In this document: piece by piece, positions 7,238 to 31,671 of the stretch
Position numbering within the stretch: position 1 is the stretch's first letter
Layout: every line of letters starts with the position of its first letter
IMG/VR virus record: IMGVR_UViG_3300033553_000338
Location: 64,001-128,000 of that record
DNA length: 64,000 nt
Strand: one strand, 5' to 3'
Origin: a virus
Notes under the pieces: model-generated
What the model saw: only the letters and a program-made list of their open reading frames with translations
What the model was told of the DNA's origin: nothing
The model's database searches: none
Program-made: the position numbers and the translations under genes

Positions 7238-9523
7238 TTATAAATCGAATTCAAGTAGCTTCTCTTTTTCTTCAACAACCCAATTAAAAGGTGTTTTCTC
7301 TACAGATTCCTCAAAACCCGGAGCATCCATTGGGTTAGAGTAAGAGAGGTTTAACTTCTCATGAGCGCTTCGGGCATCTTTGGACTTTTCTGTGATCACC
7401 CCAAACTCCCGATACCCTTCCTCATTGATGAAGTACCCCAGGTATTTTATCTCTTTGGACTTCCGAACTTCCTTCTGTACGTTCACATTTAATGCAGCAT
7501 CGTCCTCGTCCAGCAATTCACACATACCCATGGCCACCACCAAGTCAAATTTTCCCTTCAGCTCATAGCTGAAATTGATCAGGTTCTCGACCATCTCCAG
7601 AAAGAAAATATTCTCTCCGTAGTCGATGATGTAATCCTTGATCAGTCCGATGTAGTGCTGAATTGTTTTGACCTTGATACTGGTACCTTCAATCCGGGCC
7701 ATTTTCTTGGCTTTGGCCGGGTTCACGTTGTTGGTATTGATGGAAACTTCCTTGGCGATGTACCGGAGCATCTTTCTTCTCCGGAAATAGCTGATCACTT
7801 CCTTACGCGTTCTCTCTACGTTCAGTCGTGCATTGTAATACACCGCAAGTTTCAGTGCCCGTTCATAAGCTTCCCGTTCATCGTTGGGCCGGTCCATATA
7901 GTAGGCCACGTAAATGTTGTTGGTCTTTTCCGAAGACAGGTATTTTTTCTTGATGGCTATGGCGAATTTAGATCCTTTCTCTCCAACCAGGGAGTTTGCC
8001 ACACCATAGTCGATACCATCGACTCCACCAATGTATAAATTTGCAGGTACTTTGCCCCCAGGAGCTTTCTCAGGTTCTTCAATGATGTGGACCTTGCCAC
8101 CGGCCATCTCTTCAAACTTAACGCCTGTAATGACCCCCTTTTCGTTTTTTATCCAAAATAAATCCCCAACGCGATCTTCGGGAATTCCTTTTACGGTCCG
8201 GATATTTCGTTTGACTCCCTCCAGCTTAATCTTATCAAAGTCGTTTGTACCTGATTTGCTAAAAGCTTCGCGGGGCCAGAACGGGTATTCGGCAGCATGA
8301 TCCGTTAATCCTTTTACGTTACCAGCATCTTCCTGCTTTTTCCGTTCCCGGACTTCCTCCTCTAATACCTTGGCACAATCAACTACGCCATGCTTATCTA
8401 TGTATTTAAACGAGAACGCATAAGCTGGAAAAAAGAATCCCTGGAATTCCGGTTCCCCGGAGTCTGTGAAAGGAGAGTGGAGTCCCAGCATCCCAGCTGC
8501 CTCGGGCTGATAAAAAGCCTCCATCAAGCCGGCAAGGTTCTCACCATTACTTCCTTCGTCTCCTCCGGTGCCCCAAACGACCATTGTGCCCATTTTGATT
8601 CCACCAGTTTTAATCAACCCCCTTGCGGCAGAGATAACTTTGCCCAGTCCTTTAAAGGATCCGGCCTCTTCCAGGAACACATATCGGCAACGTGATCCCC
8701 TCAACTTGCTGGGTTTGTCGATCACTTTGGCCATGATGGTCGATAACCACCCGGATGCAGTCCCTTCCTTATCTTTGGTACCTGCAGTTTTTACCGCTGC
8801 AGTATCACTGACATGCCTCAGCTTCTTCATCCCACGCTGGGTATTGGAGTTCAGCCAGTCTAGCTGGGTACTGGCCTTATTCATTACACCATCACCTCCC
8901 AGCAGGTAACCCTCAAAGGAAGCACAGAACATGACCTTACTCCCTTTCTGTACCGTATAAGTATTTGTGGCACAGGACGCTGCATACTCAGACATACCAC
9001 ATCCACGGGGCTTAACACAAACAGCATCGTCCTCTTTATGCCAACTCCATTCCAGGTAGTGTGACCATGCGTAGTGGTATTCAATAAATTTGGGGTGTTT
9101 AATTTCCTCGGTAACAACGGAGCCTTCCTTTTCGCGGACCGGTAGGTTGTAATAGTTCAGCCAGTAGTAAAGATCCCCCGGACATCGGAACCCGTTAATT
9201 TCGTATCCTTGTGTACACCTGCGGTATTCTTCATCCCAGTAGGCTTTGTACTTTGCAGTTTTAAACGGGGCTTTTGTGTAATACTTGTTTTTTTCATGGA
9301 AGATTGCCGCAGGACGGAACCAGTTAGAATCAAATCGCTCAGTTAGCTGTTTATACTTCGAGAGTTTCCATAGATCCTTATTCATGTCCATCCAGGTGTT
9401 GATGGACCCATCCATCAAGCCTTCATCGATAGCTCTTTTATTCTTCTGAATATTTGACCGATAACTCTTGGAGTTAAACTTTTCAAGAAGTTCTAACCAT
9501 TCTGTATACGTGTACTTTTGCAT
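7238..9523 (-). CDS. terL: Terminase large subunit (crAss-like)
   Basis: VKPRGCGMS Walker A, FLEEAG Walker B, WGTGG motif, nuclease YIGGVDGID and FDLVVAMG. Confidence 0.93.
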   Translation of the reverse strand: MQKYTYTEWLELLEKFNSKSYRSNIQKNKRAIDEGLMDGSINTWMDMNKDLWKLSKYKQLTERFDSNWFRPAAIFHEKNKYYTKAPFKTAKYKAYWDEEYRRCTQGYEINGFRCPGDLYYWLNYYNLPVREKEGSVVTEEIKHPKFIEYHYAWSHYLEWSWHKEDDAVCVKPRGCGMSEYAASCATNTYTVQKGSKVMFCASFEGYLLGGDGVMNKASTQLDWLNSNTQRGMKKLRHVSDTAAVKTAGTKDKEGTASGWLSTIMAKVIDKPSKLRGSRCRYVFLEEAGSFKGLGKVISAARGLIKTGGIKMGTMVVWGTGGDEGSNGENLAGLMEAFYQPEAAGMLGLHSPFTDSGEPEFQGFFFPAYAFSFKYIDKHGVVDCAKVLEEEVRERKKQEDAGNVKGLTDHAAEYPFWPREAFSKSGTNDFDKIKLEGVKRNIRTVKGIPEDRVGDLFWIKNEKGVITGVKFEEMAGGKVHIIEEPEKAPGGKVPANLYIGGVDGIDYGVANSLVGEKGSKFAIAIKKKYLSSEKTNNIYVAYYMDRPNDEREAYERALKLAVYYNARLNVERTRKEVISYFRRRKMLRYIAKEVSINTNNVNPAKAKKMARIEGTSIKVKTIQHYIGLIKDYIIDYGENIFFLEMVENLINFSYELKGKFDLVVAMGMCELLDEDDAALNVNVQKEVRKSKEIKYLGYFINEEGYREFGVITEKSKDARSAHEKLNLSYSNPMDAPGFEESVEKTPFNWVVEEKEKLLEFDL

Positions 9524-28354: not shown

Positions 28355-29014
28355 TTGAAGCATTTTATCATGGAATATAAAGAACTCGAAGAACTTGTAA
28401 AAGCCGAAAAGGTTGAGTATATCATCATGGCTGATGGGACTAAAGCCAGGTTATTCATTTCAAACATGGATCGCCTTTGCAGATTTAAACCCAAATCTTC
28501 CAGAAGAGGGTATGTCCTATCCGAAGTTGATGTTAACACACTTCAGGCAATTGTGTACCTGAAAGAAAAAACCCAGGAGGATCTGGATAAAGATGAATTC
28601 AAGCTCATCTCAAAATACCGGAAGCTTGCGGAGAAATCCAGCTTCACAAATCCCTTTATTGAGGATTGTCGGTTTCTTCCTGCCACTTTGGAAGAGTGGG
28701 TTAAGCAAGGTAAGAAGAGCCTGTATGACTATCGTATCACCACTGGAAACCGGATTGATGGGAAGGTTATTACGCTTGACAAAATTTTCAGACTGTACCC
28801 AGAGGCAGTAAACTCCTTCAGGGATGCCATTAGAAAGAAAAGGGAAAGTAGGCATTCAGGTCCTATGGATGGGTATGATATGACAATCAGTACCCAGAAG
28901 AGGGGAGATGGTACCTTTGTAGGGTACCTTGCTATGGAGTTCAAGGGATGTGCCAATGGTTATTACTATGCCCTAATCAATGACAATACTTTTATAGGTG
29001 TTGATGTTGATTAA
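28355..29014 (+). CDS. Hypothetical protein
   Basis: 219-aa ORF after a promoter with a TACTTTTG box. Confidence 0.75.
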   Translation: MKHFIMEYKELEELVKAEKVEYIIMADGTKARLFISNMDRLCRFKPKSSRRGYVLSEVDVNTLQAIVYLKEKTQEDLDKDEFKLISKYRKLAEKSSFTNPFIEDCRFLPATLEEWVKQGKKSLYDYRITTGNRIDGKVITLDKIFRLYPEAVNSFRDAIRKKRESRHSGPMDGYDMTISTQKRGDGTFVGYLAMEFKGCANGYYYALINDNTFIGVDVD

Positions 29015-29023
29015 TTTTAGGGT

Positions 29024-29326
29024 ATGGATAGGATAAAAGAGTTAGTAGAACTTATAGCTATTTCAATTTTTCTTAGCCCTTGTACAGATGAAGAATTATG
29101 TGATAGGGAATTTCTAAATAATATATGCCTGGGCAATGTGCAAAGGCTTATTATGAGGTTAGAAAAAGAGAAAGCAATTTATTATAAAGGGGAAACTATG
29201 CACATTTACAGATCCTGGGCCAAGAAAAACTTAAAAGGACATGATCTTGATTTCCGCACAGAGAAGGAAAAATACTTGGATGGTATGACTACTTTTGCAC
29301 GTGAAGTTTATAAGGGTAACTTTTGA
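29024..29326 (+). CDS. Hypothetical protein (possible winged helix)
   Basis: ORF in operon order. Confidence 0.6.
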   Translation: MDRIKELVELIAISIFLSPCTDEELCDREFLNNICLGNVQRLIMRLEKEKAIYYKGETMHIYRSWAKKNLKGHDLDFRTEKEKYLDGMTTFAREVYKGNF

Positions 29327-29346
29327 GAAACTATTGCAAATTTTTA

Positions 29347-29377
29347 TTTGTATAATAGTTTTTAATGATTAAATTCG
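29347..29377 (+). promoter_or_regulatory. Promoter of the RNA island
   Basis: TTTG-N19-TAAATTCG containing the GTATAA-N6-TTAAT motif. Confidence 0.65.
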
Positions 29378-29382
29378 TGTAT

Positions 29383-29752
29383 TGTATGGCGTAAGCTATT
29401 CGATATAGTTCAATGCTACATTAAGTCGCATGTTTGGACCCGGGTTCGATTCCCGGCATCTCCACTCGTAGTCCAATTAAAAGAAGAAGTTGTCCGGGTA
29501 ATTCCCGGCTGATCTTAGGAGATTTTTGGGGTAGCCTAAGAAAGAATGACAAAAACATTTTCGGAAGTACTATAGGTACGTTATACCGGATTTGCCCATC
29601 CACGGGGATGACTGGTTTTGACAGGTGTGTAGAAGTGATGTAGGGAACACAAGCAGTTTTTTAAACGGCAAAACAATTCCATTATTTAGCAACGCGCAGG
29701 TCAGACTTGCAGCGTAGTTAACGGTTTCTCCTGGCTCCGTAATGCCGGGAAA
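29383..29752 (+). ncRNA. ssrA: Circularly permuted (two-piece) tmRNA: acceptor piece ~29383-29464, intervening segment, coding piece 29604-~29752
   Basis: The 3' module GGAC-CCGGG-TTCGATT-CCCGG-CATCTCC-A comes before the 5' module GGGGATG-ACTGGTTTTGAC. They form a 7-bp acceptor stem with G3:U70. P2 pairings TGATGTAG/CTACATTA and GAAC/GTTC. Tag 29667-29717 = GKTIPLFSNAQVRLAA*. Confidence 0.88.
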
Positions 29753-29753
29753 T

Positions 29754-29893
29754 GGGAAAGTAGCTCAGTTGGTAGAGCTGGAGGCTGAACGCCTCTGGAG
29801 AGCCTCGGAAACACGGATGCGTGTTTTGTCAGTAAAGGCCAACGAATCGGGGGACATCCCGAAAGTGCGTAGGTTCGAGTCCTACCTATCCCA
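29754..29893 (+). ncRNA. Oversized tRNA-like RNA (140 nt; GAA at the anticodon position; ~70-nt variable domain)
   Basis: Acceptor GGGAAAG/CTATCCC, D arm GCTC-AGTTGGTA-GAGC, GGAGG-CTGAACG-CCTCT, T arm GTAGG-TTCGAGT-CCTAC. Confidence 0.75.
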
Positions 29894-29912
29894 CAACTAA
29901 AATCAGCTATTA

Positions 29913-30100
29913 TGGTAGTTTACCCTTTAGTAGCGGATGTGCCGAATGTGACAATCTTTGCGAAATGCATTGAGATCCGGTGGTTCTATAAAATCGAAAA
30001 ACCACTGGGTAAATTAACCAAGAACACTTGCCTTAGGCCGAATTTGGGGTTCGGTAACTAAGCAAAGCACATTCGTAATCCCGGGATGGTTTATCCCGGG
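29913..30100 (+). ncRNA. Unassigned structured RNA (~190 nt)
   Basis: Multiple nested stems plus a long-range CGAATGTG/CACATTCG pairing; lies between two tRNA-like genes. Confidence 0.55.
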
Positions 30101-30105
30101 TACAA

Positions 30106-30194
30106 GGAGAGTTGGGTAAGAGGCTTAAGCCACCGGTTTGCTAAACCGGCGTACAGATTAAACTGTACCGGGGGTTCGAATCCCTCACTCTCCG
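30106..30194 (+). tRNA. tRNA-Ser(GCT)
   Basis: Acceptor GGAGAGT/ACTCTCC, G73, CCGGT-TTGCTAA-ACCGG, long variable arm, T arm with TTCGAAT loop. Confidence 0.93.
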
Positions 30195-30205
30195 CTGAAA
30201 TGTAT

Positions 30206-30333
30206 AGGGATATGACGGAATTGGTAGACGCTAAAGATGGAGGTATGAAACAATCAAGCTGCATTGTGCATGATGTGTAGAGCATGTTAGTAATATCTGT
30301 GAAGTCGTGCAGGTTCGAATCCTGCTATCTCTT
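30206..30333 (+). ncRNA. Oversized tRNA-like RNA (128 nt) with expanded anticodon domain
   Basis: Acceptor AGGGATA/TATCTCT, Leu-type D region ACGGAATTGGTAGACG, T arm GCAGG-TTCGAAT-CCTGC; no canonical anticodon arm. Confidence 0.7.
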
Positions 30334-30345
30334 AAAATTAAACAT

Positions 30346-30519
30346 GTATGTCTGTCCCAGTTGGGGGAGCATCTGGAGCACAAGGAAAGGGAGTCATGCC
30401 CCGGAACTTGTGTTCATGTACAATACCTGGAGTTTTTGTAAAAGTGTACATATTACACAAACTCCAATCATTGTCTTATGGAAACAAAAGGATGTAGGGT
30501 TCGAATCCCTGGATATACT
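30346..30519 (+). ncRNA. Oversized tRNA-like RNA (174 nt) with multibranched, pseudoknotted insert
   Basis: Acceptor GTATGTC/GATATAC, D arm TCCC-AGTTGG-GGGA, T arm TAGGG-TTCGAAT-CCCTG. Confidence 0.65.
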
Positions 30520-30526
30520 CTGATAC

Positions 30527-30615
30527 AAAAGACGGAAACAGGCATCGGTCCGGATTTGAATGGAGATACCATAGGCTTTCAGCGTAGGCTGATGATGCGG
30601 AAAACTAAGTCTTTT
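30527..30615 (+). ncRNA. Unassigned structured RNA (~90 nt)
   Basis: AAAAGAC/GTCTTTT, GCATC/GATGC, TCAGC/GCTGA and TGG/CCA stems. Confidence 0.45.
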
Positions 30616-30620
30616 TATCT

Positions 30621-30687
30621 GGACCTCTATCACTTTAGAATGGTTGCCCTTGGCTCAAGGGTTCAGGTTCGATTCCTGAGAGGTCCG
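30621..30687 (+). ncRNA. Minimal tRNA-like RNA (67 nt), non-canonical D and anticodon arms
   Basis: Acceptor GGACCTC/GAGGTCC, T arm TCAGG-TTCGATT-CCTGA, hairpin CCCTTG-GCT-CAAGGG. Confidence 0.6.
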
Positions 30688-30724
30688 CTTAGTTGGTTGG
30701 TTAGTTTTTTAGTGTTGGTTTTTT

Positions 30725-30796
30725 AGGTCTTTAGCTCAGTTGGAAGAGCGTTAGGTTCACCCCTAAAGGTCCCGGGTTCGAGTCCCGGAAGGCCCC
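30725..30796 (+). tRNA. tRNA with a 6-nt anticodon loop (TTCACC; Val-CAC-like, identity uncertain)
   Basis: Canonical D arm GCTC-AGTTGGAA-GAGC and T arm CCGGG-TTCGAGT-CCCGG; stem TTAGG/CCTAA; A1:C72 mismatch. Confidence 0.7.
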
Positions 30797-30810
30797 CAAA
30801 TTTAGTAACA

Positions 30811-31026
30811 ATGTTCACAGATAAAGTAAAGACAATGACACTCTTATCAGTAATTGCAGTAATAGTTCTATACTTAACCGTCTTCTACAGTTTCATACTG
30901 CCTAAGATGATCTACAGTGAGTCTAATTTTATTGCATCAATGGGGAGTTTCCTATTCTTTACCAGTCTGATAGCACTCTTGATTTTAATTAACATTTTTA
31001 AATATTTTCTTTTTATTAATCCTTAA
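30811..31026 (+). CDS. Small two-TM membrane protein
   Basis: Two hydrophobic segments. Confidence 0.6.
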   Translation: MFTDKVKTMTLLSVIAVIVLYLTVFYSFILPKMIYSESNFIASMGSFLFFTSLIALLILINIFKYFLFINP

Positions 31027-31038
31027 ATTTTATCAAAA

Positions 31039-31443
31039 ATGAAGAAGTACATTGTTGTTTTATTGCTAGTACTTAGCGCGTGTTTGATCCCGCAGATTGA
31101 CTGGGATCCTGGAGAAGGCTTGGATAAGCCTATTGTAGAAAATTGTATTGATTGCCCTGCCAGCATGGTTCAGGGGGTTACCGCGTATCAGATGATCCAC
31201 CAGGACATCAATCAGGTAGTGTATGCTCCTTTGGAGTATCAACCTTTGTCAGTGGAATCCACCGGTTTAAATCCAAAGCAAGCGACTCTACCAGAGAGTT
31301 TTCAGCGATTTCGACCCCAGAATAGTCTACAGGCGAAGTACCATCTATACAATACCATAAGCAAATTGAATCCCGAGTACATGGACCAGCATATTGATGC
31401 AACGGTCTTACGACACATTACAACTCAGGAATACCAGGTTTAG
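31039..31443 (+). CDS. Putative lipoprotein/secreted protein
   Basis: MKKYIVVLLLVLSAC signal peptide with an LSAC lipobox-like motif. Confidence 0.65.
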   Translation: MKKYIVVLLLVLSACLIPQIDWDPGEGLDKPIVENCIDCPASMVQGVTAYQMIHQDINQVVYAPLEYQPLSVESTGLNPKQATLPESFQRFRPQNSLQAKYHLYNTISKLNPEYMDQHIDATVLRHITTQEYQV

Positions 31444-31508: not shown

Positions 31509-31671
31509 GGGGATTAAGCTGTTGGACCAGCCCGGGGAGAATGTACCTGGAGAGTGTTTGTGGAGCGTGAAGCATATCCGAGGATTTAAGATAGCCTAAG
31601 GTAACACATAACGGTGTGTGAAATACAGAATCCTAAAAGTAGCCACTGAGGTTCGAGTCCTCAAATCCCCA
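31509..31671 (+). ncRNA. Oversized tRNA-like RNA (163 nt) with large variable domain
   Basis: Perfect acceptor GGGGATT/AATCCCC, D arm GCTG-TTGGAC-CAGC, T arm TGAGG-TTCGAGT-CCTCA. Confidence 0.7.

Follow-up and report, generated by a model that had tools for sequence, protein, structure and literature searches.

The 212-nt spacer between two tRNA-type genes of a crAss-like phage (29894-30105, plus strand) may be a phage-specific small non-coding RNA, which would be co-transcribed with the adjacent tmRNA and tRNA genes and released by tRNA processing. We put the probability of this reading at about 45%. The stability of the fold, the size of 212 nt, the G.U pairs of the plus strand, the plus-strand orientation of the flanking genes and the lack of a promoter or terminator inside the spacer speak for it. 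Against it stand a minus strand that is also structured, an unstructured spacer at the analogous position in a related phage and seven genome windows that are as stable; in addition, a lone well-folded sequence is weak evidence of function.

The spacer was analysed within a window of 64,000 nucleotides, the stretch from base 64001 to base 128000 of a virus record that is 157,880 bp long and has direct terminal repeats; all positions given here are those of the window. An earlier note had described most of the spacer as an unrecognised, pseudoknotted RNA between tRNA-like genes and had proposed that it is a novel structured RNA or a ribozyme. This observation was largely correct: the location between tRNA-type genes holds and "unrecognised structured RNA" is a fair description, but "pseudoknotted" and "ribozyme" are unsupported. 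The element and the genes that surround it are the following.

29417-29717, plus strand: circularly permuted (two-piece) tmRNA gene that opens the island (RF04321, 67.5 bits, gathering threshold 47; ARAGORN tmRNA*)
29754-29893, plus strand: tRNA-like gene of 140 nt, the upstream flank of the element (RF00005, 42.8 bits)
29894-30105, plus strand: the whole inter-tRNA spacer, candidate small RNA, 212 nt
30106-30195, plus strand: tRNA-Ser(GCT), the downstream flank of the element (ARAGORN; RF00005, 50.8 bits)

Folding stability and helices of the spacer

The spacer begins with the base after the discriminator of the upstream gene and ends with the base before tRNA-Ser. Its MFE is -68.2 kcal/mol, as compared with -49.7 +/- 4.5 kcal/mol in dinucleotide shuffles (z -4.10), and none of the 200 shuffles was equally stable; the coordinates of the earlier note, 29913-30100, give a z of -3.38. 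When windows of 212 nt were tiled across both strands of the 157.9-kb genome and the MFE was regressed on GC, the spacer ranked 8th among 2976 (top 0.3%). Seven other windows, mostly coding, match or exceed it in GC-corrected stability, so that the folding of the element is clearly unusual for its genome but not unique. The signal comes from the 3' two-thirds, since 29975-30066 alone has a z of -3.35 and the 5' 85 nt a z of -0.76. The fold is retained when the flanking tRNA-type genes are included (centroid, 442-nt context).

Most helices are inverted repeats with Watson-Crick pairs only, and for this reason the minus strand of the spacer folds well too (z -3.32); the plus strand is more stable by 9.6 kcal/mol, and seven of the 63 MFE pairs are G.U. 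Such symmetry would be expected of a DNA-level inverted-repeat element acting as a protein-binding, replication or recombination site, and two CCCGGG palindromes in the terminal repeat fit the same idea. We regard it as extremely unlikely, since the G.U pairs favour an RNA of the plus strand, the neighbours are RNA genes, and the strand switch and the GC-skew minimum are found near 14-18 kb of the window, away from the element.

Inspection of the sequence located at their positions all the helices that had been named before. These are AGTTTACCC (29917-25) with GGGTAAATT (30007-15), which form 9 bp with one G.U and can be extended to 10 bp at 29916/30016; CGGAT (29934-38) with ATCCG (29975-79) and GTGGTT (29980-85) with AACCAC (30000-05); the CTTAG/GCCGAAT hairpin (30032-30064); the perfect 8-bp pair of CGAATGTG (29943-50) and CACATTCG (30068-75); and the terminal hairpin of CCCGGGAT (30080-87) and ATCCCGGG (30093-30100). 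According to the folding model, the stable core of the element is nested, not pseudoknotted, and consists of three hairpins and one long-range helix. The parts of the model are listed below.

29902-29938, plus strand: 5' hairpin of the MFE model (AUC/GAU, GCUAUUA/UAGUAGC, GGUA/UACC), the weak part of the fold
29943-29950, plus strand: 5' strand of the long-range helix, CGAAUGUG (CGAATGTG), pairing with 30068-30075
29975-30010, plus strand: hairpin AUCCGGUGGUU / AACCACUGGGU, 11 bp with two G.U and a 14-nt A-rich loop
30028-30065, plus strand: hairpin UUGC-UUAG-GCCGAAUU / GGUUCGGU-CUAA-GCAA, within the segment with z -3.35
30068-30075, plus strand: 3' strand of the long-range helix, CACAUUCG (CACATTCG)
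30080-30100, plus strand: terminal hairpin CCCGGGAUG / UAUCCCGGG, pair probability 0.98

The long-range helix is made of eight perfect Watson-Crick pairs, with a mean pair probability of 0.82 and a duplex energy of -9.1 kcal/mol, and the GUGGUU core of the 29975-30010 hairpin reaches a pair probability of 0.94. The 30068-30075 strand has an alternative partner, GCGGAUGUGC at 29933-42, with which it forms 10 bp including two G.U (-14.0 kcal/mol), and the fold of exactly 29913-30100 uses this alternative. The tandem repeat GGAUGUG-CC-GAAUGUG (29933-29950) thus offers two mutually exclusive partners for GCACAUUCGU (30067-30076), which possibly represents a conformational switch or a mere small duplication. 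The terminal hairpin was not called in the terminator scan and, having no U tract 3' of it, is not an intrinsic terminator. We also observed UAUGG and CCUUAG together with a GAAAU loop in the element (29911-29915, 29962-29966 and 30031-30036, plus strand); CCUUAG is one base off what we take to be the CCUAAG half of the 11-nt GNRA-tetraloop receptor.

Crossing helices and the possibility of catalysis

The pseudoknot that had been claimed involves a further helix, which crosses the long-range helix 29943-50/30068-75 and whose 5' strand is overlapped by the 5' hairpin (29902-29938).

29916-29925, plus strand: 5' strand of junction helix A, pairing with 30007-30016, 10 bp with one G.U

In the nested ensemble, junction helix A and the CGGAT/ATCCG pairing have a pair probability of about 0, and forcing helix A raises the free energy from -68.2 to -59.0 kcal/mol. 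If the pseudoknot were formed in addition to the long-range helix, nested pairs worth 20.9 kcal/mol would be lost: 11.6 kcal/mol from the 5' hairpin and 9.3 kcal/mol from the five base pairs that extend the 29975 hairpin. In return, about 15.2 kcal/mol of duplex energy would be gained, with no pseudoknot penalty yet counted. Near-perfect stems of at least 8 bp number three in the spacer, where 1.06 are expected from shuffles (P = 0.08), and 9.7% of shuffles contain two such stems that cross. Given these two frequencies, the pseudoknot is possible but carries no evidential weight.

The same helices bear on whether the element could be a pseudoknotted catalytic RNA, that is, a self-cleaving ribozyme that helps to cut the precursor. 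Two crossing helices do exist, one (A) of 10 bp with one G.U and one (B, the long-range helix) of eight perfect pairs; helix A has a G.U close to its start, and the 3' strand of helix B is preceded by CAAA. The strand order A5'-B5'-hairpin-A3'-hairpin-B3', in which two crossing helices flank two hairpins, is what we take to be the topology of HDV-like nested double pseudoknots. HDV-like ribozymes are nested double pseudoknots with P1 at the cleavage site, a 3-bp P3 with a short L3, a 2-bp P1.1 and a catalytic C in J4/2. The element differs from them in having no compact P3/L3, no P1.1 and no clear catalytic C in J4/2; its would-be P3/L3 is a stem of 7-11 bp with a 14-nt loop instead of a compact 3-bp P3. 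The HDV-type Rfam models did not match the element, and only the strand order fits. No other ribozyme family matched it at E <= 10 either, and no conserved core can be defined. Together with the unfavourable energy balance, the frequency of crossing stems in shuffles and the fact that RNase P and RNase Z already account for the processing, this makes a ribozyme very unlikely.

Searches for known families, homologues and a coded protein

A slice of 1.9 kb (29300-31200) was compared by cmscan with the 4227 models of Rfam 15 at E <= 10, a set that includes RNase P, group I/II introns, self-cleaving ribozymes, 6S, SRP, GOLLD, ROOL, pRNA and Y RNAs. This check, which the earlier note had proposed, yielded 12 matches in the slice and none inside 29894-30105; at gathering thresholds, tmRNA_permuted and three tRNAs were all that turned up in the whole window. 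The lack of RNase P and group I signatures was confirmed by the same run. Bacterial RNase P RNA carries the regions CR-I to CR-V, which form the long-range helix P4, and is usually about 330-400 nt long; no such model matched the element at E <= 10, and the element has 212 nt. Group I introns have a P3-P9 catalytic core with a G-binding P7 and are inserted within a host gene. Intron_gpI had no match in the element at E <= 10, and the element lies between two complete tRNA-type genes and inside neither. For tRNA- or tmRNA-like RNAs, the 7-bp acceptor stem and a T arm with a GTTCRANYC loop are diagnostic; neither ARAGORN nor Rfam (E <= 10) found a match within 29894-30105, where the T-loop word is absent. 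Of the proposed novel structured RNA, the unusually good folding and the absence from any described RNA family stand, and the RNA itself stays a candidate.

Bacterial Y RNAs (YrlA; PMC4201824) invite comparison, as they are structured, measure about 100-200 nt, come with tRNA-like modules and are in some cases found in phages. Their marks are the tRNA-like module, a helix that binds Ro60 and a Ro60 (TROVE) gene in the genome. The element differs from them in having no tRNA-like module, the phage has no Ro60/TROVE gene, and YrlA did not match within the element at E <= 10. The one weak YrlA match lies outside the element, at 30662-30749 (19 bits, gathering threshold 69).

No homologue of the element was found by BLAST, by pattern scans or with a covariance model, and hence there were no compensatory changes to compare. 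When 29300-31000 was searched by blastn against 50,697 GenBank phages, only the tRNA-Ser matched; MT835817, which gave one nearby match, was rejected as a bacterial-type fragment and not a homologue. The covariance model, derived from this one sequence and its MFE fold (201 positions, 63 pairs), scored 254.9 bits on itself; in all, about 8 Mb was searched with it, made up of related phages and of phage tRNA/tmRNA islands. It recovered only itself in the genome of the phage, with no paralogue, and its best scores among 50 TerL-related IMG/VR records (about 6 Mb) were 8-11 bits. Nothing was found with filters off on the tmRNA islands of TerL-related relatives, nor in the two crAss-like GenBank records nearest to the phage or in one phage that bears GroEL. 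The same was true, by blastn or with the model, for 66 IMG/VR loci collected by a tmRNA T-arm pattern and 80 collected by a tRNA-Ser 3' pattern. A pattern of the element's hairpin had no match in IMG/VR, and the scans of JGI metagenome contigs with two 19-mers of the element yielded 0 matches and 9 chance hairpin matches.

Synteny anchors were equally negative. With GroEL, the two best-scoring non-self matches were cellular contigs and no RNA island was found; the contigs of RIIA relatives had no RNA island; and the homologues (40-50%) of a 219-aa neighbour had no adjacent RNA genes. The TerL, 219-aa and 134-aa proteins as single queries in IMG/VR gave nothing, and scanning GTDB genomes for GroEL opened no way into the Bacteroidota. 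Since a covariance model made from a single sequence is insensitive, the null result indicates that the element has no recognisable relatives and not that it has no function; with no homologue in the collections searched, neither conservation nor covariation is available for it. Pairing with possible antisense targets in the phage genome, or with the other RNAs of the island, did not exceed chance level. We conjecture that the RNA, if active, more likely acts through shape than through base pairing.

The statement that the spacer holds no credible open reading frame needs a correction, as an ATG-initiated ORF of 49 codons spans 29912-30061 on the plus strand and covers most of the element; the ORF has no protein relatives. 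It could be that this 49-residue protein is what the DNA encodes and that the RNA structure is incidental, and an identical 49-aa entry exists in a protein collection, i.e. a gene caller had called it. A HMMER search of 1.84 billion representative proteins returned only this entry and one marginal match (E 2e-4) to a 30-residue stretch of a 906-aa protein. By our estimate, chance alone would produce an ORF of such length fairly often in a 212-nt sequence of 42% GC, and this one is enclosed by RNA genes that leave no room for translation signals. A coded protein is thus hardly probable, and all available tests predict that the element is non-coding.

The RNA gene island, its phage and related systems

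All the RNA genes that flank the element are on the plus strand. The gaps between the other RNA genes of the island measure about 10-35 nt, apart from a single one of about 100 nt, as compared with the 212 nt of the element. The other spacers fold ordinarily (z -0.03 for the intervening segment of the tmRNA and z -2.39 for 30520-30621). No consensus promoter or terminator was found between the genes that flank the element, and for the neighbouring ORFs neither Pfam nor PHROG gave a match related to RNA. TROVE (Ro60), RtcB, SmpB and reverse transcriptase are absent from the phage genome; the positive controls for TROVE worked.

The island is opened by the permuted tmRNA, whose tag peptide is GKTIPLFSNAQVRLAA. 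The upstream neighbour of the element, the tRNA-like gene 29754-29893, has an insert of about 70 nt in the variable region and C at position 37. Aberrant tRNA-like genes continue 3' of tRNA-Ser up to the last one, a tRNA at 30725-30797. Oversized tRNA-like genes, which retain acceptor and T arms and carry inserts of 55-120 nt, were seen at 29754-29893, 30206-30333, 30346-30519 and 31509-31671 (plus strand); as a tRNA, 30239-30333 scores 22.2 bits, under the threshold. The tRNA at 30725-30797 (plus strand, 52.7 bits) has an anticodon stem UUAGG/CCUAA around only six bases (UUCACC), and the "anticodon" that ARAGORN reports for it has two bases. Directly 3' of it lies a small ORF, 30811-31026 (plus strand; MFTDKVKTMTLLSVIAVIVLYL...), the product of which looks hydrophobic and membrane-protein-like by eye. 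Within the 100-nt spacer 30520-30621, the hammerhead-core words CUGAUGA ... GAAA occur at 30586-30606 (plus strand); no Rfam hammerhead model matched this spacer by cmscan at E <= 10.

Such an arrangement suggests how the element could be released. A plus-strand precursor would carry the permuted tmRNA, the tRNA-like genes, the spacer RNA and tRNA-Ser together. Host RNase P, by cutting at the start of tRNA-Ser (30106), would create the 3' end of the spacer RNA. Its 5' end would come from the 3' maturation of the upstream tRNA-like gene, by RNase Z or exonucleases after 29893, and what is left would be a free RNA some 200 nt long with a nested core. The release by processing of the flanking tRNAs that had been proposed before agrees with the location, which fits RNase P and tRNA 3' processing; the processing itself, like the transcription of the spacer RNA, its persistence as a discrete RNA and any function, is what we infer. 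Its most probable function would be that of a protein-binding or decoy RNA tied to the translation and tRNA theme of the island.

The spacer could also be an inert processing spacer or the decayed remnant of a tRNA-like or cargo gene, the hairpins of which arose by chance or serve the stability of the precursor. We consider this unlikely, though it deserves serious weight. The several aberrant tRNA-like genes of the island would provide a source for such a remnant, and the element has neither homologue nor paralogue. Its 5' third is unstructured (z -0.76), its long stems are only mildly enriched, and the positional analogue in the relative L282, a spacer of similar length between tmRNA and tRNA-Cys, is unstructured (z -1.10). 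However, a z of -4.1 and a rank in the top 0.3% of the genome are hard for decay to produce, and no trace of a T arm or acceptor and no tRNA/tmRNA match at E <= 10 are left in the spacer. The small RNA thus remains our preferred explanation.

The phage that carries the island has only distant relatives in the collections searched. Its TerL (7238-9523, minus strand) matches the crAss-type PHROG 6681 and has 27-34% identity to GenBank Crassvirales and unverified gut phages; in IMG/VR, the closest relative is 45% identical, on a 27-kb fragment, and dozens of crAss-like genomes of 130-190 kb have 31-36% identity. Among 5.8 billion protein clusters, no relative of the phage GroEL or RIIA exceeded 44% identity (RIIA at most 42%). 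Since TerL, GroEL and RIIA are all remote from their nearest relatives, the phage represents an orphan crAss-like lineage. Read with the standard code, its terminase is open, as is that of MT835470. The Suoliviridae relatives cr130_1 and cr124_1 have 6-7 in-frame TAG codons within their terminase genes, which points to TAG recoding there.

The 219-aa protein encoded beside the island (28355-29014, plus strand) has no Pfam or PHROG family. Homologues with 40-50% identity were found in Acidobacteria (Pyrinomonadaceae) genomes and in phage-like contigs, which hints at a gene shared between cells and phages and at a soil or freshwater origin. Just 5' of the island, two overlapping windows of the genome ranking (28857-29174, plus strand; 31-38% GC) are 2nd and 7th of 2976 in GC-corrected folding; they reach from the last part of the 219-aa ORF into the first part of a 100-aa ORF.

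The distant TerL relatives (31-36% identity; L282-L291) also have tmRNA/tRNA islands, in which the tmRNA is one-piece (RF00023, 57-81 bits), and the tag of the L282 tmRNA, GKNNVSFAITSYRVAA, resembles that of the studied phage. From these two observations, the permutation of the tmRNA may have arisen within the lineage of the studied phage. The tmRNA matches of L283, L285, L286, L288 and L291 span about 535-565 nt instead of the usual ~360, which suggests big insertions in the tmRNAs of these large crAss-like relatives.

Other phages provide parallels for an RNA in such a place. The tRNA region of T4 gives rise to RNAC and RNAD, two small RNAs for which no role is known (PMC3014915). Like the element, they are non-tRNA segments in a phage tRNA gene cluster, on the strand of the tRNAs, and their release is presumably by the tRNA-processing machinery. 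However, T4 is unrelated to crAss-like phages, so that no sequence relationship is expected, and the element is known from its sequence alone; by position it is of the RNAC/RNAD type, which is a functional kind and not a sequence family. The GOLLD and ROOL RNAs are found near phage tRNA islands, GOLLD sometimes with embedded tRNAs (PMC12286853), and resemble the element in being elaborately folded RNAs of unknown function in such a location. They differ from it in being ~3-4 times larger (about 580-800 nt or more) and in having multi-pseudoknot structures supported by covariation; their Rfam models did not match the 212-nt element even at E <= 10. It is quite unlikely that the element founds a new class of compact, tertiary-folded and possibly pseudoknotted or catalytic phage RNA, which would be released from tRNA/tmRNA precursors and act on host translation or tRNA-targeting defence, for example as a decoy or inhibitor; the element is seen in one orphan crAss-like lineage only.

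At present the element is a lone sequence without relatives, and its main value is that of a defined target. The island, with its permuted tmRNA and oversized tRNA-like genes, is more remarkable than the element itself. If the RNA is real, its place beside these genes suggests a coordinated RNA-based takeover of translation or an evasion of tRNA-directed defences. Few viruses of Bacteroidota are as abundant as the crAss-like phages, and to our knowledge almost nothing is known about the non-coding RNAs of these phages. If real, the RNA of the spacer would be a compact addition to the few structured RNAs of phage tRNA islands, namely RNAC/RNAD, GOLLD and ROOL.
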